NCBI RefSeq assembly: GCF_024700885.2 | Contig: NZ_CP117016.1 | Length of the DNA stretch: 64,000 nucleotides | Direction: 5' to 3' (one strand) | Origin: Escherichia coli | Lineage (GTDB): Bacteria; Pseudomonadota; Gammaproteobacteria; Enterobacterales; Enterobacteriaceae | Part shown: piece after piece, positions 9,024 to 51,566 of the stretch | How the letters are laid out: the number at the start of each line of letters is the position of its first letter | Numbering within the stretch: position 1 is the stretch's first letter | Notes under the pieces: generated by a model | The model's input: only the letters and a program-made list of their open reading frames with translations | The model's database searches: none | What the model was told of the DNA's origin: nothing | Translations under genes and position numbers: made by a program

Positions 9024-11455
9024 TCCAGCCCCATCGCCCGCAAATGCTCGGCCACTTTCTCGCTCAACGCCTCAACGGAGGCTTCAAGCGCTAGCAACGG
9101 TTCAGCATAACGCTCTTCCAGCTCCTTTACGCGCGACGCCAGTTGCTGGGTAATACGCTCAATCTCCGCCTTGATCCCTGCCTGCAACGTTGCCAGCCAC
9201 TTATCCTGCACTACCAGCGTTTTAATCGCTGCTTCATCCAGCGTGGGATAATGTTTAAACACCGCCCGATCCAGCGCTTCTTGTGCGGCTTTCAGCGCTT
9301 TTTTCGCACTGGCTTCGGCCTTAATTAGCGCCAGGCAGCGGTTCAGCACTGCCAGCTCATCTGGGCCGGCAGTGGTTTTCTTTAACTGTGCTAGACGGGC
9401 ATTCACCAGCTTTTGCGTCACCTTATCTTTATCGTTCTTCGCCTCGGCCAGCAGATCCTCTTCACCTGCCTGCTCCTCGATGAATTCCACTAGCTGACGA
9501 CTGGCTTCTTCACTGCGCTCCTGCGCGCGGTTCAGCGCATCCAGCAGTTCCGGGAAACAGCGAATTTCCACCAGCGAACGGGGCAGCACATCGGCCTTGT
9601 AGCGCCGTTTGGTAAACTCGAAATCGTGCGTTTCTTTCCAGATGTTTTTGCCATCTTTGCCTTTCACCGGCTGAAGCTCGCGGATTTGCGCGGCGGCTTG
9701 CCAGCCATCCTGCATAATCGCATACACATCGTCTTGCATGACATCAGTCCAGTAATCCATCAGGATCTGGTACACGCTGTATTTGTTCAGCAACTCACTG
9801 TTGGCGTACTGCGCCAATAGCATTTCGCTGATATCGTGGATTAGCGCTTTGGGTTTATCACCTTTGCGAATCTCTTCCAGACTTGCCTCTTTCACCCACG
9901 CTTTAAACGGTAGCAGGCTGCGGGTGGCAAAATCCTTAAACTCCTGATGCGCCAGAATGGTCGGTTTCACCTGTTGCGCGTTCACCTGCGCCCGACAGTA
10001 ACCGGGACGGTCGTCAGCAAACAGCACGTTGCGCAGGGCAGGGAATACCCGCCAGTAATCTTGCAAAGCATCCACATCGCGTGCCGGAATACCGCCCTGT
10101 AAGTGCGCGGTCAGATCGTGTAAATCTTCCGGCTCGCCGCTCTCGATATAGCGAGGAATATTCAGGTTGTAATCATTTCCGGCGATCTCGCTGGAGGGCA
10201 CCATCCGGCTGTAGCCAGGTACCGTTCGCTGATGGTTGAACACGTCCACAATGCGGTGAATATCTCGGCTACGCAGGCGGTTCTTGTTGCCATCTTTGAT
10301 AAAGCCCCGGCTGGCGTCGATCATAAAAATGCCTTTGCGGCTGTGGGCGTGCTCTTTATCAATCACAATGATGCACGCCGGGATGCCGGTGCCGTAAAAC
10401 AGGTTGGCTGGCAAACCAATAACGCCTTTGATATAGCCCTGCTTGATTAGATTTTCACGGATATTCGCTTCGGCGTTACCGCGAAACAGTACGCCGTGGG
10501 GCAGGATCACCGCGCCTTTGCCGGTACTTTTCAGGCTTTTAATGATATGCAACAAAAAAGCATAATCGCCGTTTTTTTCCGGCGGAATACCCCAGCCGAA
10601 GCGTTCAAACGGATCTTTTTTCGGCGTCAGCCCGTTGGTCCAGTTTTTATTGGAAAAAGGCGGGTTCGCCACGGCAAAATCGAAGGCTTTCAGTTTGCCG
10701 TTCGCCTCTTTCCACTGCGGATCGCTCAGCGTATTGCCCTGCCAGATTTTCGCGGTGGCATTGTTATGCAGAATCATGTTCATCCGCGCCAGCGCACTGG
10801 TAGCGTTATCCATCTCCTGGCCGAAAATCGACAGTCCGCGCCGGGCTTCATCATTCACTTTCAACAGCAGCGAACCAGAGCCACAGGTTGGGTCATAAAC
10901 CGTTGCATCTTGCGGAGTATCGGGAGTAATACCAATCACCTTCGCCAGAATACGTGACACCTCCGCTGGAGTGTAAAACTGCCCTTTACTCTTACCGGAT
11001 TCGGTTGCGAAGTGACGCATCAGATATTCATAGGCATCGCCCAGCAGATCGTCGCCTTCGGCCCGGTTGCTGGAGAGATTTAACCCTTCAAAGATACCGA
11101 CAAGCTTGCTCAGGCGGTCAATCATTTCCTTGCCTTTGCCGAGCTTATCTTCGTCGTTAAAGTCGGCTTCGTCGATGACGCCCTTCAGGCCGTTCTCTTC
11201 CGCCAGCTTGTGGATGATTTTGTTGATTTTGTCGCCGATCTCTTTGTCATTTTTCAGCGCAACCATATCGTCAAAGCTGGCTCCTTTGGGTATCACGATC
11301 ATCCCGTAAGGATCGCCTTTATACTTATCGGAAACGTACTTCATAAACAGCAGGGTCAGTACATAGTCTTTGTACTGGCTGGCGTCCATCCCGCCACGCA
11401 GTTCGTCGCAGCTTGCCCACAGGGAAGAATAGAGTTCGGTTTTTTTGATAGCCAT
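9017..11455 (-). CDS. hsdM: Type I restriction-modification methyltransferase subunit (HsdM), long form with ~300-aa C-terminal coiled-coil extension
   Basis: 812 aa; HsdM N-terminal domain (MAIKKTELYSSLWASCDELRG...), AdoMet motif I DPTCGSGSLL and N6-adenine motif IV NPPF; C-terminal third is Ala/Glu/Lys/Leu-rich and predicted helical. Confidence 0.85.
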   Translation of the reverse strand: MAIKKTELYSSLWASCDELRGGMDASQYKDYVLTLLFMKYVSDKYKGDPYGMIVIPKGASFDDMVALKNDKEIGDKINKIIHKLAEENGLKGVIDEADFNDEDKLGKGKEMIDRLSKLVGIFEGLNLSSNRAEGDDLLGDAYEYLMRHFATESGKSKGQFYTPAEVSRILAKVIGITPDTPQDATVYDPTCGSGSLLLKVNDEARRGLSIFGQEMDNATSALARMNMILHNNATAKIWQGNTLSDPQWKEANGKLKAFDFAVANPPFSNKNWTNGLTPKKDPFERFGWGIPPEKNGDYAFLLHIIKSLKSTGKGAVILPHGVLFRGNAEANIRENLIKQGYIKGVIGLPANLFYGTGIPACIIVIDKEHAHSRKGIFMIDASRGFIKDGNKNRLRSRDIHRIVDVFNHQRTVPGYSRMVPSSEIAGNDYNLNIPRYIESGEPEDLHDLTAHLQGGIPARDVDALQDYWRVFPALRNVLFADDRPGYCRAQVNAQQVKPTILAHQEFKDFATRSLLPFKAWVKEASLEEIRKGDKPKALIHDISEMLLAQYANSELLNKYSVYQILMDYWTDVMQDDVYAIMQDGWQAAAQIRELQPVKGKDGKNIWKETHDFEFTKRRYKADVLPRSLVEIRCFPELLDALNRAQERSEEASRQLVEFIEEQAGEEDLLAEAKNDKDKVTQKLVNARLAQLKKTTAGPDELAVLNRCLALIKAEASAKKALKAAQEALDRAVFKHYPTLDEAAIKTLVVQDKWLATLQAGIKAEIERITQQLASRVKELEERYAEPLLALEASVEALSEKVAEHLRAMGLEW

Positions 11456-11494: not shown

Positions 11495-11800
11495 TTACAG
11501 CAGATCGGTATTCAGACCGGCGGCCTTTAACCGATGGGTTAAGTTACGCATTTTGCTGAATTCGGTACCGAGGCTCTGGTTCAGACCAGTGCCTTCGCAA
11601 AAGGCTTTTGCCGTAATGTGTTCCAGTTTGTCGGCATATTTAATCATTTGCAGGTGCAGCTCGACGGTGTACTGGTTACGAGGCGCACTGGAAAGTGCCT
11701 GCCGGATATGGCGATAAATCTCGTCTTCATTCATATTCATGGCAACCACTGGTATAATAGATAAGTTAGCTAAATTAGCTAAATGTGGTATCAGGTTCAA
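11495..11800 (-). CDS. Hypothetical small protein at the head of the hsd/darTG operon (80-101 aa)
   Basis: ORF immediately upstream of hsdM on the same strand (39-nt spacer); protein-like composition; internal Met (MNMNEDEIYRH...) is an alternative start; no family recognised. Confidence 0.4.
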   Translation of the reverse strand: MNLIPHLANLANLSIIPVVAMNMNEDEIYRHIRQALSSAPRNQYTVELHLQMIKYADKLEHITAKAFCEGTGLNQSLGTEFSKMRNLTHRLKAAGLNTDLL

Positions 11801-12732: not shown

Positions 12733-13677
12733 ATGGATTTAATTATGGAATGGAGATTTTTAGGTTCTCTATCAGAGGCCAGGAAATCTGGCTGTAGCGG
12801 AGTTTATCTTATTGTCCATAAAGGACTTTTCAGTCGTGTGGTTTACGTTGGGGTAAGTTGTAATGTAGGTAGAAGGATAACCGAACATTACGACGGTTAT
12901 CTTAGAGGAAATCGAACAATTTACGACGCTGGTCACGACGAAGACGTTTATCGCTTCATGTCAGCTTATAAAATTCATAACCACACAAAATACTATCAAG
13001 CCTTGGCGAATGATTATAAGATATGGGCATCTACCACAATGTATTCTGATTTGCCGAAAAACATGCTAGCAAAAAGCCAAACCTTTGATACTGATTGGCA
13101 GAGCATTGCATTAGAAAAATATATTCCTCAACTGGTAGTATGGGCCCTTCCAATGGCAAAGTACTGTTATTCAAATGCAAGCAGGATTGAAAGTGTAATC
13201 CAATCAAAGCTCATTAAATCTTTTGATTTGAGAGGTTTTTTTAATATAAAGCAATTAAGCATATTGGGTAAAATTGAATATCCCTATATGGAAAAGGTCA
13301 AAGTTTTCATTATTAACACACCTGATTTAGACCCGGCATCCCAGCTTATTTTTAGCAATCTATATAACAAAAAAACTGATAACAACTTCTGTAAAGAGTT
13401 CCGTTCACAATTTAAAAGCGAGATTTTTCAGAGGGAAAGTGAAACTCAGAGAAAGCGAACTATCAGGGAGCATAAGGTATCTCTTTATGAAAATTATGGC
13501 AAGCCTTGGACTTTAAAGGAAATGGAAAAACTTAGAGTCATGCTTGTCGATTTTGATTTGTCCCCGATAGAAATATCTGAGTATCTAGGAAGAGAGCCGC
13601 GCTCTATATCTAAAAAAATAAGCGAAAATGATAAAGTTACTAATTATAAATGGCGAGAGAGCGTCGGCTGGTTGTGA
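12733..13677 (+). CDS. Hypothetical protein with GIY-YIG-like nuclease N-terminus and HTH-like C-terminus, in an AT-rich segment
   Basis: 314 aa; N-terminus GVYLIVHKGLFSRVVYVGVSCNVGRRITEH resembles the GIY...YIG...R...H core of GIY-YIG nucleases such as I-TevI; C-terminal ...WTLKEMEKLRVMLVDFDLSPIEISEYLGREPRSISKKI resembles a helix-turn-helix; flanked by ~400 bp of AT-rich non-coding DNA. Confidence 0.55.
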   Translation: MDLIMEWRFLGSLSEARKSGCSGVYLIVHKGLFSRVVYVGVSCNVGRRITEHYDGYLRGNRTIYDAGHDEDVYRFMSAYKIHNHTKYYQALANDYKIWASTTMYSDLPKNMLAKSQTFDTDWQSIALEKYIPQLVVWALPMAKYCYSNASRIESVIQSKLIKSFDLRGFFNIKQLSILGKIEYPYMEKVKVFIINTPDLDPASQLIFSNLYNKKTDNNFCKEFRSQFKSEIFQRESETQRKRTIREHKVSLYENYGKPWTLKEMEKLRVMLVDFDLSPIEISEYLGREPRSISKKISENDKVTNYKWRESVGWL

Positions 13678-14879: not shown

Positions 14880-14925
14880 AAAACGATCGATAAAACAGGT
14901 ATCGATCGTTACCATCGATCGTTTA
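14880..14925 (+). promoter_or_regulatory. agn43 (flu) phase-variation switch: three closely spaced GATC Dam sites in the OxyR operator
   Basis: GATC at 14885-14888, 14904-14907 and 14917-14920, ~210 bp upstream of the Ag43 start, matching the known Dam/OxyR switch architecture. Confidence 0.75.
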
Positions 14926-15137
14926 TAGTGGTTAATGGTCTGCGAAAAGGCAGCTGAATCTCTTCATCATGCAGAACGGAATTGCACACAACGGACTGAT
15001 ACTTCTCTGGCGGATGAGAGAGGGGAAGCATTTATGTCCGGGAAAAACCACTTTATCTGACCATGCTGTTTTGTACCTGCCGGTATCCACATTTGTGGGT
15101 ACCGGCTTTTTTATTCACCCTCTGTAAGGAAAAGCTG

Positions 15138-21561: not shown

Positions 21562-22383
21562 ATGCGATTAGCCAGTCGTTTTGGTTATGCTGCAAACCAG
21601 ATACGCCGTGACCGTCCACTGACACATGAAGAGCTGATGCACCATGTGCCGGGGATTTTCGGGGAAGATAAACACACGTCCCGAAGCCAGAACTATACGT
21701 ACATCCCCACCATCACCGTGCTGGAAAGTCTGCAGCGGGAAGGCTTCCAGCCATTCTTCGCCTGCCAGACCCGTGTGCGCGACCCGGGCCGTCGGGGATA
21801 CACAAAACACATGCTGCGTCTGCGGCGGGCCGGAGAGATAAACGGAGAACATGTCCCTGAAATTATTCTGCTCAACTCTCATGACGGTACCTCCAGCTAC
21901 CAGATGCTGCCGGGTTACTTCAGGTTCGTCTGCCAGAACGGGTGCGTCTGTGGTCAGTCTCTGGGGGAAGTGCGTGTTCCGCACCGGGGAAATGTAGTGG
22001 AGAAAGTTATCGAAGGGGCTTACGAGGTGGTGGGGGTTTTTGACCGGATAGAGGAGAAGCGTGATGCCATGCAGTCGCTGGTCCTGCCGCCACCGGCACG
22101 CCAGGCGCTGGCACAGGCGGCACTGACTTACCGTTATGGTGACGAACATCAGCCCGTCACCACCGCCGACATTCTGACGCCACGACGCCGGGAGGATTAC
22201 GGAAAGGACCTGTGGAGTGCTTATCAGACCATCCAGGAGAATATGCTGAAAGGGGGGATTTCCGGTCGCAGTGCCAGAGGAAAACGTATCCACACCCGTG
22301 CCATTCACAGCATCGACACCGACATTAAGCTCAACCGCGCATTGTGGGTGATGGCTGAAACGCTGCTGGAGAGTATGCGCTGA
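21562..22383 (+). CDS. DUF932-family protein (YfjQ/YafZ-like)
   Basis: 273 aa; position and sequence character match the DUF932 genes of CP4-type islands. Confidence 0.7.
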   Translation: MRLASRFGYAANQIRRDRPLTHEELMHHVPGIFGEDKHTSRSQNYTYIPTITVLESLQREGFQPFFACQTRVRDPGRRGYTKHMLRLRRAGEINGEHVPEIILLNSHDGTSSYQMLPGYFRFVCQNGCVCGQSLGEVRVPHRGNVVEKVIEGAYEVVGVFDRIEEKRDAMQSLVLPPPARQALAQAALTYRYGDEHQPVTTADILTPRRREDYGKDLWSAYQTIQENMLKGGISGRSARGKRIHTRAIHSIDTDIKLNRALWVMAETLLESMR

Positions 22384-22474
22384 TGCCGTTTCCCTGAAAG
22401 CGCAGTTCTGACTCACGTCTGTCCCTTCCCCCGGGATTTCTTCCATTCATTTACTTTTTATAAGGAATAATCTC

Positions 22475-22960
22475 ATGACAACCGTCTTGCATAATTCCAC
22501 CACTCCTTCTGTTTCCGTAACCGCTGCATCAGGGAATGACCAGCCTCAGCTGGTTGCCACCATAGTCCCTGATGAACAGCGCATCAGCTTCTGGCCGCAG
22601 CACTTTGGCCTCATTCCACAGTGGGTGGCCCTGGAGCCCCGTGTCTTCGGCTGGATGGACCGTCTGTGTGAAGACTACTGCGGTGGTATCTGGAATCTGT
22701 ACACCCTGAACAACGGCGGGGCATTTATGGCACCCGAACCGGATGACGATGATGACGAAACATGGGTACTGTTCAATGCCATGAACGGTAACCGCGCTGA
22801 AATGAGCCCGGAAGCCGCCGGCATTGCTGCCTGTCTGATGACGTACAGCCATCATGCCTGTCGTACGGAGTGTTATGCCATGACGGTCCATTATTACCGG
22901 TTGCGGGATTACGCCCTGCAGCATCCGGAATGCAGCGCCATTATGCGCATCATCGACTGA
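22475..22960 (+). CDS. Anti-restriction protein (ArdB/KlcA family, YfjX/YafX-like)
   Basis: 161 aa; acidic DDDDDE stretch and ...FGWMDRLCEDYCGGIWNLYTLNNGGAFMAP... typical of this family; position upstream of the radC-like gene. Confidence 0.75.
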   Translation: MTTVLHNSTTPSVSVTAASGNDQPQLVATIVPDEQRISFWPQHFGLIPQWVALEPRVFGWMDRLCEDYCGGIWNLYTLNNGGAFMAPEPDDDDDETWVLFNAMNGNRAEMSPEAAGIAACLMTYSHHACRTECYAMTVHYYRLRDYALQHPECSAIMRIID

Positions 22961-23452
22961 ATGGAGAGAAGCACAATGCAACAGCTTTCCTTTCTGCCCG
23001 GAGAGATGACGCCCGGCGAGCGCAGTCTCATTCTGCGGGCCCTGAAAACTCTGGACCGCCATCTTCATGAACCCGGCGTGGCCTTCACCTCCACCCGTGC
23101 GGCACGGGAATGGCTGATTCTGAACATGGCGGGACTGGAGCGTGAAGAATTCCGGGTGCTGTATCTGAATAACCAGAATCAACTGATTGCCGGTGAAACC
23201 CTCTTCACCGGCACCATCAACCGCACGGAAGTCCATCCCCGGGAAGTGATTAAACGCGCCCTGTACCACAATGCCGCTGCCGTGGTGCTGGCGCACAATC
23301 ACCCGTCCGGTGAAGTCACACCCAGCAAGGCAGACCGCCTTATCACGGAACGTCTGGTACAGGCACTGGGCCTGGTGGATATCCGGGTGCCGGACCATCT
23401 GATAGTCGGTGGCAACCAGGTTTTCTCCTTTGCCGAACATGGTCTGCTTTAA
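22961..23452 (+). CDS. yeeS: RadC-like JAB-domain protein (YeeS/YfjY/YkfG family)
   Basis: JAMM motif HNHPSGEVTPSKAD; alternative start at 22976 (MQQLSFLPGE). Confidence 0.85.
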   Translation: MERSTMQQLSFLPGEMTPGERSLILRALKTLDRHLHEPGVAFTSTRAAREWLILNMAGLEREEFRVLYLNNQNQLIAGETLFTGTINRTEVHPREVIKRALYHNAAAVVLAHNHPSGEVTPSKADRLITERLVQALGLVDIRVPDHLIVGGNQVFSFAEHGLL

Positions 23453-26467: not shown

Positions 26468-26555
26468 TGGCGGTGAGGGGGGGATTCGAACCCCCGATAC
26501 GTTGCCGTATACACACTTTCCAGGCGTGCTCCTTCAGCCACTCGGACACCTCACC
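26468..26555 (-). tRNA. serX: tRNA-Ser (anticodon GGA), serX-like
   Basis: Reverse complement reads GGTGAGGTGTCCGAGTGGCTGAAGGAGCACGCCTGGAAAGTGTG...GGGGGTTCGAATCCCCCCCTCACCGCCA: long variable arm, T-loop GGTTCGAATCC, CCA end, GGA anticodon. Confidence 0.95.
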
Positions 26556-32099: not shown

Positions 32100-32853
32100 G
32101 ATGAAACCCCGCTTTTTTTATTGATCGCACACCTGACAGCTGCCTCTAAAATAGAAGCACCAGAAGTACTGACAGATGTTGCACTGCTGTGTGTAGTAAT
32201 AAATCAGCCCTAAATGGGTAAAATATAAAACTAATGGATTACATCTGATTTCAATCTAGCCATTACAAATCTTAAATCAAGTGTTAAACATGTAACTAAA
32301 TGTAACTCGTTATATTAAAATGTTAATCTTAAGGTTTTATTAAGTTTAGAAATGATAGAAAAGTTGTACATTTGGTTTTTATTGCACAATTTTAAAAAAT
32401 CATACAAATGGTGCTAACTTACTAATAATGCATATAAAAAATATTTCGGTGTAGTCCTTTCGTCATGTAAAACGTTCTTGTTTTTTCTTCACACCTCCGT
32501 GGACAATTTTTTACTGCAAAAAGACGAGGTTTGTCACGGCTTGTGCGCAAGACATATCGCAGCAATCAGCGACGGGCAAGAAGAATGGCTGTCTGGTGAT
32601 TTTTGATTGCGGAAAACGGAGATTTAAAAGAAAACAAAATATTTTTTTGCGTAGATAACAGCGTATTTACGTGGGTTTTAATACTTTGGTATGAACAAAA
32701 AAAGAAAAATACAACGCGCGGGTGAGTTATTAAAAATATTTCCGCAGACATACTTTCCATCGTAACGCAGCGTTAACAAAATACAGGTTGCGTTAACAAC
32801 CAAGTTGAAATGATTTAATTTCTTAAATGTACGACCAGGTCCAGGGTGACAAC
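32100..32853. promoter_or_regulatory. csgD-csgB divergent intergenic regulatory region (754 bp, AT-rich)
   Basis: 754-bp non-coding AT-rich segment between divergent csgD and csgB starts, matching the known curli control region; individual binding sites not mapped here. Confidence 0.7.
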
Positions 32854-34251: not shown

Positions 34252-34631
<380 letters not shown>

Positions 34632-34725
34632 GTTTCTGAACAACTCACCTTGCTGAGCAGAAAAATGCGATTTAACCAAAAAGCCTGCTGTACACTTAAG
34701 AAACAAGAAGGTGTAAGGAGGCGTT

Positions 34726-35259
34726 ATGAAAACGCGTATTCATGTTGTGCAGGGTGATATTACCAAACTGGCCGTTGATGTGATTGTGAATGCGGCTAAT
34801 CCGTCATTAATGGGAGGCGGCGGCGTCGATGGGGCCATTCATCGCGCAGCGGGTCCGGCGCTGCTGGATGCCTGTTTAAAAGTCAGGCAACAGCAGGGCG
34901 ATTGCCCTACGGGGCATGCCGTTATTACGCTTGCAGGCGATCTTCCCGCTAAAGCCGTAGTGCACACCGTCGGGCCAGTCTGGCGTGGTGGTGAACAAAA
35001 CGAAGACCAGCTTTTGCAGGATGCCTATCTCAATAGCCTACGACTGGTGGCGGCAAACAGCTATACGTCAGTGGCTTTTCCTGCAATTAGTACTGGGGTT
35101 TATGGTTACCCTCGTGCGGCAGCGGCTGAAATCGCAGTAAAAACCGTTTCAGAATTTATTACCCGTCACGCTTTACCCGAACAGGTATACTTTGTCTGTT
35201 ATGATGAAGAAAACGCCCACCTCTACGAAAGACTCCTTACTCAACAAGGAGATGAATGA
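34726..35259 (+). CDS. ymdB: O-acetyl-ADP-ribose deacetylase (macrodomain) YmdB
   Basis: [43 protein letters not shown]: macrodomain motifs. Confidence 0.95.
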
Positions 35260-36682
35260 TTTGCCCCGGCTGGCGAGCGCGGTGCTGCCACTGTGTTCGC
35301 AACATCCCGGTCAGTGTGGCCTTTTTCCTCTGGAGAAAAGTCTGGATGCGTTTGCCGCCCGGTATCGTCTGGCCGAAATGGCAGAGCATACGCTGGATGT
35401 TCAGTATTACATCTGGCAGGACGATATGTCGGGTCGGTTACTGTTTTCCGCCCTGTTAGCCGCAGCAAAGCGTGGCGTTCGCGTCCGTTTGTTGCTGGAT
35501 GACAACAATACGCCCGGACTTGACGACATTTTACGCTTGCTTGACAGTCATCCACGCATTGAAGTCCGGCTTTTTAATCCTTTCTCGTTTCGCTTGCTGC
35601 GTCCGCTTGGTTATATCACCGACTTTTCCCGTCTCAATCGCCGTATGCACAATAAAAGTTTCACTGTCGATGGCGTGGTTACCCTGGTGGGAGGACGAAA
35701 TATTGGTGATGCCTATTTTGGTGCAGGGGAAGAGCCACTTTTTTCGGATTTAGATGTCATGGCAATAGGACCAGTTGTAGAGGACGTTGCCGATGATTTC
35801 GCCCGCTACTGGTATTGCAAATCGGTTTCACCCCTACAGCAGGTGCTGGATGTCCCGGAAGGTGAAATGGCGGATCGCATCGAGTTACCAGCATCCTGGC
35901 ACAACGATGCCATGACGCATCGTTATTTACGCAAAATGGAATCCAGCCCGTTTATAAATCATCTGGTTGATGGAACGTTGCCGCTTATCTGGGCGAAAAC
36001 ACGTTTATTAAGTGATGATCCGGCGAAAGGGGAAGGCAAGGCAAAACGGCATTCACTGTTACCGCAGCGCCTGTTCGATATCATGGGCTCACCCAGTGAA
36101 CGCATCGATATTATCTCTTCCTATTTTGTACCGACACGCGCAGGTGTGGCGCAACTCTTACGGATGGTGAGAAAAGGGGTAAAGATTGCGATCCTAACCA
36201 ATTCTCTTGCCGCTAACGATGTTGCTGTCGTCCATGCCGGATACGCGCGCTGGCGCAAAAAATTGCTCCGCTATGGCGTGGAATTATATGAACTCAAGCC
36301 GACGCGTGAACAAAGTAGTACGTTACACGATCGCGGCATAACCGGTAATTCCGGTGCCAGCCTGCATGCTAAAACCTTTAGCATCGATGGTAAAACGGTG
36401 TTTATCGGCTCTTTCAATTTCGATCCACGTTCGACATTGCTCAATACTGAAATGGGCTTCGTGATAGAGAGCGAAACGCTGGCACAGTTAATTGATAAAC
36501 GCTTTATTCAGAGCCAGTATGATGCGGCCTGGCAGCTCCGTCTGGACAGGTGGGGACGGATCAACTGGGTTGATCGTCATGCAAAGAAAGAGATTGTTCT
36601 CAAAAAAGAACCCGCCACCAGTTTCTGGAAGCGGGTTATGGTCAAACTGGCGTCGATATTGCCCGTGGAATGGTTATTGTAA
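35252..36682 (+). CDS. clsC: Cardiolipin synthase C (phospholipase D family)
   Basis: Two HxK(x)4D-like motifs (HNKSFTVDG..., HAKTFSIDG...); start taken at MNDLPRLA, overlapping ymdB stop by 8 nt; start uncertain. Confidence 0.85.
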
Positions 36683-42322: not shown

Positions 42323-42416
42323 GCCTGATGAGCTACGCTTATCAGGCCTACATCGCTCCTGCAATATGTTGATTTTGCAAGATTTTGTAGGTCGGATAAG
42401 GCGTTCACGCCACATC
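42323..42416. repeat. REP/BIME element (two inverted REP copies)
   Basis: GCCTGATGAGCTACGCTTATCAGGCCTACA and GTAGGTCGGATAAGGCGTTCACGCCACATC, classic REP consensus in opposite orientations. Confidence 0.8.
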
Positions 42417-51515: not shown

Positions 51516-51566
51516 TAATCTCTATGCTCCGGCTGAAGGGATGTTTTTGCCGGACACAAAGGATAA

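Follow-up and report, generated by a model that had tools for sequence, protein, structure and literature searches.

The window analyzed in this study (the whole stretch of 64,000 nucleotides of Escherichia coli chromosomal DNA) contains two genes encoding macrodomain proteins, ymdB and darG. Their positions, together with those of the other features discussed below, are presented in Table 1.

Table 1. Genes, RNAs and other features of the window, with the basis of their assignment.
Feature	Position	Strand	Basis and remarks
Truncated autotransporter beta-barrel fragment	213-1121	+	
IS600 (IS3-family) transposase remnant	1161-1775	-	
M48/YgjP-like metallopeptidase gene, last gene of the RRDM operon	2120-2836	-	Pfam YgjP-like, 209 bits; annotation
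hsdR, type I restriction subunit R	2836-5931	-	Pfam HSDR_N, SWI2_SNF2, T1R_D3; annotation; downstream of darG
darG, antitoxin	5950-7017	-	355 aa, WP_000634203.1; Pfam, NCBIfam, PADLOC
darT, ssDNA thymidine ADP-ribosyltransferase toxin	7014-7670	-	218 aa, WP_000312833.1; Pfam, NCBIfam, PADLOC
hsdS, specificity subunit	7683-9017	-	Pfam Methylase_S; upstream of darT
hsdM, type I methyltransferase subunit	9017-11455	-	Pfam N6_Mtase, 348 bits
rptR-type gene, small HTH repressor	11495-11734	-	Pfam HTH_73, 99 bits
Three direct repeats with 9-bp spacing: TTTAGCTAA, TTTAGCTAA, CTTATCTAT	11758-11781	-	From the sequence; upstream of rptR
Gene for a hypothetical protein	12733-13677	+	314 aa, WP_032171640.1; GC 0.39; between RRDM and a YeeP-like GTPase gene
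IS102 RNA	14883-15119	+	Rfam, gathering level; just upstream of the Ag43 gene
serX, tRNA-Ser(GGA)	26468-26555	-	ARAGORN, Rfam tRNA; 8.2 kb from ymdB
ES056 sRNA	32155-32246	-	Rfam, gathering level; csgD upstream region
ymdA, core neighbor upstream of ymdB	34320-34631	+	ORF and RefSeq annotation
Shine-Dalgarno sequence of ymdB, AAGGAGG	34714-34720	+	Read from the sequence; 5 nt before the ATG
ymdB, MacroD-type macrodomain protein	34726-35259	+	177 aa, ATG start, WP_000857405.1
clsC, cardiolipin synthase C	35201-36682	+	ORF, PLD domains (Pfam), RefSeq annotation
ES036 (CssrF)	42344-42386	-	Rfam, gathering level; after mdoH
PyrC leader	51516-51565	-	Rfam, gathering level

The product of ymdB matches the Pfam Macro family (PF01661) with its residues 21-137 along the whole model (positions 1-118; 154.4 bits, E 1.5e-45), and the NCBIfam equivalog NF001660, named 'O-acetyl-ADP-ribose deacetylase', with residues 1-177 (376.1 bits, cutoff 271). 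It is the same protein as the E. coli YmdB of PDB entries 5CB3, 5CB5, 5CMS and 1SPV, without any difference (177/177 residues identical to the crystallized protein of 5CB3/1SPV), and identical DNA carries the RefSeq annotation ymdB, with the same protein accession. A comparison with the catalytic and ADP-ribose-binding residues listed for YmdB (PMC8120803) revealed that N22, N25, G32, D35, H39 and Y126 are all retained, including the catalytic N25/D35/Y126 and the N-GGVD-GVYG motif. The deacetylase and de-MARylase activity of YmdB and its binding to RNase III are known from the literature on the identical protein (PMC8120803, PMC4222554), which, when over-expressed, alters how more than 2000 genes are expressed and elevates RpoS (PMC4222554).

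The ymdB gene is part of the conserved core block csgBAC-ymdA-ymdB-clsC. It forms an operon with clsC, whose 5′ end, in another reading frame, coincides with the final 59 nt of ymdB (35201-35259). Clones carrying ymdB yield more ClsC, by a mechanism that a review calls unknown (PMC8027125); a simple candidate explanation for this increase, in view of the 59-nt overlap, is translational coupling or an effect at the mRNA level. A scan for sigma-70-like consensus promoters around ymdB found none, terminator-like matches around the gene were no more frequent than in shuffled controls, and an Rfam scan of the whole window gave no match within or beside ymdB or darTG. The matches to IS102 RNA, ES056, ES036 and the PyrC leader bear no relation to the macrodomain question.

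The second macrodomain protein, DarG, matches Pfam Macro (76 bits), the NCBIfam family antitoxin_DarG (NF048014; 451 bits, cutoff 250) and the PADLOC DarG model (424 bits). It comprises an N-terminal ALC1/TARG1-like macrodomain with a catalytic lysine, K80, and a C-terminal DarT-binding domain that matches PDB 7YK3. The adjacent gene encodes a protein identified as DarT by Pfam (PF14487, DUF4433; 181 bits), NCBIfam (toxin_DarT, NF048013; 263 bits, cutoff 150) and a PADLOC match, which has both G49 and the catalytic glutamate E170. The program-made ORF of darG (5950-7029, minus strand) begins four codons before the annotated start (MVLL-MITY...). With the annotated ATG at 7017, the stop codon of darT overlaps the start of darG as ATGA (7017-7014), and the residue numbering is compatible with that of the Taq protein (K80). 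The corresponding residue is K54 in the EPEC paper, an offset of 26, because an older annotation began at the internal M27. Judged by these sequence matches, the segment 5950-7670 (minus strand) is a predicted DarTG2 toxin-antitoxin locus. The toxicity of DarT, the rescue by DarG and phage defense have been shown for the EPEC proteins (PMC7003065, PMC12255303).

The statement of the first-pass annotation that this DNA encodes two ADP-ribose-processing macrodomain proteins is thus borne out by Pfam, NCBIfam, PADLOC and the identity with PDB entries. A third or degraded macrodomain was also sought, using phmmer with both macrodomains against all six-frame stop-to-stop segments of at least 50 aa in the whole window (n=545); only YmdB and DarG were recovered, and this candidate was rejected.

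The RRDM operon and its island

The darTG genes lie between hsdS and hsdR in an operon with the gene order rptR-hsdM-hsdS-darT-darG-hsdR-M48 (RptR-RM-DarTG-M48; RRDM), which extends from position 11734 down to 2120 on the minus strand. This layout, together with both macrodomains, has already been described: it is that of EPEC E2348/69, the strain used to characterize E. coli DarTG (PMC7003065, Lawarée et al. 2020). The RRDM island of EPEC E2348/69 protects against phages, and RptR represses via TAGCTA direct repeats (PMC12255303, Zhang et al. 2025). Within the three repeats found upstream of rptR in the window, the TAGCTA palindrome is perfect in two and degenerate in one. They agree with the operator published for RptR (PMC12255303). 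The 66-base stretch 11735-11800, which begins immediately upstream of the rptR start and spans the repeats, does not occur in exact form in the EPEC locus.

The EPEC operon contains the same seven genes in the same order, at the same serX site and approximately 30 kb from ymdB, with approximately 34 kb between ymdB and darG. A comparison of the encoded proteins with those of the window revealed no differences in DarG or YmdB, one in M48, three each in RptR (compared with WP_000343040.1) and DarT, four in HsdR, and 19 in HsdM. The differences between the window DarT and EPEC DarT are Q97R, D139N and A213S, none of them at G49 or E170. The HsdS proteins, in contrast, are only 45% identical and have differing target recognition domains, and therefore a different DNA specificity is expected.

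The hsdS gene was compared with the locus copies of EPEC (5830-7191) and of the O157:H7 strain 7636 (21734-23083). At the level of sequence, swapping of target recognition domains around a fixed DarTG insert is suggested. The window HsdS is a mosaic, while DarG is invariant; relative to the copy of strain 7636, HsdS is 99% identical in the second half and only 50% in the first. The GC content falls to 0.385 at this gene.

The serX gene constitutes a border, with the island to its left and the core block ghrA...csg...ymdB to its right. The earlier assignment of YmdB to the core genome and of DarG to an island therefore stands, ymdB being located in the csgBAC-ymdA-ymdB-clsC block and darG in the island on the other side of serX. 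The island contains IS remnants, an Ag43 autotransporter gene, CP4-type genes with a CbtA/YeeU pair, and the type I RM operon. Positions 2001-27000 of the window are 100% identical to E. coli strain MLI114, in which the island runs at least 10 kb past the window start and carries an ABC transporter, TolC genes, IS481 and a group II intron maturase fragment. The fragments at 213-1775, directly downstream of the M48 gene, mark a decayed edge of RRDM.

The cargo flanking the operon differs from that of EPEC: an intact Ag43 gene and the gene for the 314-aa hypothetical protein are present in the window, whereas IS elements and dynamin/patatin genes occupy these flanks in EPEC. The hypothetical protein, WP_032171640.1, is missing at the equivalent EPEC position. 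It gave no Pfam or PADLOC match at E ≤ 0.001, and a GIY-YIG match of its residues 22-62 was below the threshold (15.8 bits, cutoff 22.6). On the basis of its sequence, it could be a putative nuclease or defense gene product.

Distribution and linkage of ymdB and darTG

The distribution of the two loci was determined in complete E. coli genomes. The ymdB gene was found in 5423 of the 5426 genomes, and the darTG pair of the window in 248 of them. Because ymdB is present in nearly all genomes, practically any carrier of darTG has both genes, and their joint presence is not above chance and carries no information.

In the window, ymdB is located 28 kb from darG and 27 kb from darT. The O157:H7 strain 7636 (NZ_CP038421.1, approximately 3.585-3.633 Mb) has identical DarT and DarG proteins, encoded by an RM-DarTG-M48 module in a related CP4-type island. 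The module is inserted there at another tRNA-Ser gene, by infA/aat/cydC, and ymdB is absent from the neighborhood. A type I Zorya system borders it there, as does a CDI (two-partner secretion) locus, and its rptR is truncated. The different tRNA-Ser site and the different defense cargo indicate that the module travels between tRNA-Ser islands. In BL21(DE3), ymdB is present, but serX is empty of the island and is directly followed by core genes. A conserved physical linkage of darTG with ymdB was therefore rejected, since the module lies elsewhere in strain 7636 and serX is unoccupied in BL21(DE3). The nearness of the two loci in the window results from integration of the island at serX.

Catalytic classes of the two macrodomains

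The first-pass annotation had raised, as speculation, the idea that YmdB could act on DarT-derived ADP-ribosylation. On this reading, YmdB would be a back-up glycohydrolase that takes DarT-made ADP-ribose off thymidine in ssDNA and thereby buffers toxicity whenever DarG is lost or titrated. The macrodomain fold and ADP-ribose binding shared by YmdB and DarG speak for this idea, which we nevertheless consider extremely unlikely, and the sequence relationships of the two proteins are among the observations that count against it.

Among solved relatives, those closest to YmdB were MacroD2 and MacroD1 (E 1e-44 to 1e-40 among the matches listed), and no DarG or TARG1 chain occurs among the best 60 of its 99 structure matches. 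The DarG macrodomain is closest to the solved DarG proteins of Taq and Mtb (PDB 5M31/5M3I), which it matches along the full length with E values of 1e-54 to 1e-56. These are followed by TARG1 (E 1.7e-7), where the catalytic lysines align, and YmdB is absent from the solved-structure matches of the DarG macrodomain. YmdB also gave no match to NF048014 or the PADLOC DarG model. The two macrodomain proteins of the window share 24% identity over 122 residues (BLASTP), and they find each other at merely 9-12 bits in phmmer searches.

The conserved residues of DarG include N8, L9, T20, N22, K29, T79, K80, H82, W83, G117 and G119-G121. All contact or mutation-sensitive residues named for TaqDarG (PMC5179494) are identical in the window protein, except for V31, replaced by I, and Q34, replaced by M. 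In the BLASTP alignment, G83 of YmdB stands opposite K80 of DarG. YmdB thus has neither the catalytic lysine of the TaqDarG K80/TARG1 K84 class nor the Gln found in SCO6735 (PTK-HW loop). It is a single domain of 177 aa, encoded between ymdA and clsC, without the C-terminal DarT-binding domain of DarG. By sequence criteria, YmdB is assigned to the MacroD type and DarG to the ALC1/TARG1-like type, i.e. to different catalytic classes. Bulk charge, also considered as a discriminator of the classes, was rejected: the pI is 5.4 for YmdB and 5.0 for the DarG macrodomain, which gives no separation.

The lysine is required in TaqDarG, which is inactivated by mutation of K80 (PMC5179494), and the activity of EPEC DarG is lost in the equivalent mutant K54A (PMC7003065). 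In SCO6735, however, Gln occupies the position of the lysine, and the enzyme, a member of the ALC1-like class, still cleaves the thymidine adduct (PMC9411070). For this reason, the missing lysine of YmdB is supportive of the distinction, but not decisive.

YmdB and the DarT adduct

DarT bonds the ribose C1″ to an in-ring nitrogen of thymine, and its substrate is described as thymidine in ssDNA alone, not dsDNA, RNA or proteins (PMC8883491). For MacroD-type enzymes, the following substrates are listed: (i) O-acetyl-ADP-ribose, (ii) Glu/Asp-linked protein ADP-ribose and (iii) phosphate-linked nucleic acid ends (PMC8120803, PMC8385414). Two relatives from the class of YmdB have been assayed: MacroD1 of humans and SCO6450, the MacroD orthologue of the bacterium S. 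coelicolor, for which, as for YmdB, the N-GGVD-GVYG motif is listed (PMC8120803). Both were inactive on DarT-modified thymidine, whereas DarG was active (PMC5787345). They strip ADP-ribose from phosphorylated DNA ends (PMC5787345) and from 5′-phosphorylated RNA (PMC8385414). MacroD1, PARG and ARH3 are also inactive on DarT-modified genomic DNA, according to a review (PMC9967889). By extrapolation from the two class relatives, we infer that YmdB is probably not usefully active on the adduct made by DarT.

The capacity to reverse this adduct is attributed to the ALC1-like class, represented by DarG, TARG1 and SCO6735 (PMC9411070, PMC8501950). Human TARG1 and S. coelicolor SCO6735 are stand-alone macrodomain proteins, encoded chromosomally and outside a darT operon, which remove thymidine-linked ADP-ribose and rescue cells (PMC9411070, PMC8501950). 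The concept of a back-up enzyme therefore has precedent, but every such precedent is ALC1/TARG1-like and thus of the DarG class, unlike YmdB. In the open-access literature, we found no report of an assay of YmdB on DarT-modified DNA or of the effect of YmdB over-expression on DarT; the search returned only reviews and data on class relatives.

Published genetic experiments also bear on this question. The YmdB proteins of BL21(DE3) and EPEC E2348/69 show no difference from that of the window, and both strains have the same ymdA-ymdB-clsC context. Expression of darT(G49D) nonetheless reduced viability by approximately 4 logs in BL21(DE3) and by approximately 1 log in EPEC ΔdarTG, and it blocked BrdU incorporation; wild-type darT could not be cloned or maintained without darG (PMC7003065). 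DarT thus kills strains bearing an identical YmdB. DarG acts by a dual mechanism, and the DarG-independent survival of EPEC relies on RecF-dependent recombination, then on nucleotide excision repair (NER) (PMC7003065). It should be considered that the native level of YmdB may be low in toxicity assays performed in exponential phase.

YmdB might also leave the thymidine adduct alone and yet affect the outcome of DarTG activity. The proposed indirect routes are (i) clearance of ADP-ribose linked to the phosphate of DNA or RNA ends, (ii) consumption of free ADP-ribose derivatives released by DarG, and (iii) a change in RNase III and RpoS-dependent expression under stress. The first is in line with the clearance of phosphorylated DNA ends and 5′-phosphorylated RNA by MacroD1 and SCO6450, and the last with the shift in gene expression and the increase of RpoS upon YmdB over-expression. 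Against such an interplay stands the restriction of DarT to ssDNA thymidine. The genomes, moreover, show no sign of co-adaptation, because the linkage of the genes is not conserved and ymdB is universal whatever the darTG status. We judge the indirect interplay to be highly improbable.

Some residual weight is left on both alternatives, since the published assays found concern class relatives of YmdB, native YmdB may be scarce, and SCO6735 functions with Gln. One may imagine that YmdB, induced in stationary phase or in the cold, or over-expressed, measurably modulates DarTG2, either by a weak activity on the adduct or indirectly, by clearing phosphate-linked ADP-ribose or through RNase III/RpoS effects. 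The core macrodomain would then set the threshold of DarT-mediated replication arrest during phage infection. The chance of this being so appears to be exceedingly small.

It is very probable that YmdB and DarTG represent two independent, already characterized systems that are neighbors by accident, and that YmdB does not substitute for DarG. The present analysis supplied the identities of the genes, the residues, the classes, the distribution and the absence of a conserved linkage that enter into this explanation, and the enzymology and toxicity data come from published experiments. YmdB would bind ADP-ribose, and a water molecule positioned by N25 and D35 would hydrolyze ester-type conjugates, namely O-acetyl-ADP-ribose and Glu/Asp-linked mono-ADP-ribosyl proteins. 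It would also bind and inhibit RNase III, while the overlapping ymdB-clsC operon would increase the output of ClsC. The darT-darG pair would be a horizontally acquired DarTG2 toxin-antitoxin and anti-phage module, placed inside a type I RM operon and borne by an island that integrates at tRNA-Ser genes. [quoted passage not shown]

Of the original reading, the gene identifications and the division between core and island are upheld. The suggested action of YmdB on the product of DarT is disfavored, although not formally refuted, by the MacroD class of YmdB, its G83 opposite K80, the inactivity of MacroD1 and SCO6450, the DarT sensitivity of strains with identical YmdB, and the incidental proximity of the two genes. 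Both genes, the structures, the island and its regulation have already been published, and the arrangement is an ordinary one.

Any action of YmdB on lesions made by DarT would break the current rule that ALC1/TARG1-like macrodomains alone reverse thymidine ADP-ribosylation, and would mean partial immunity to DarT-type toxins in every E. coli. Such an activity would also bear on DarT2 as a genome-editing tool and on DarG as a drug target, but the available evidence points in the opposite direction. As it stands, the pairing of YmdB and DarG matters little: the same protein pair is present in the EPEC strain that serves as the reference for work on DarTG.
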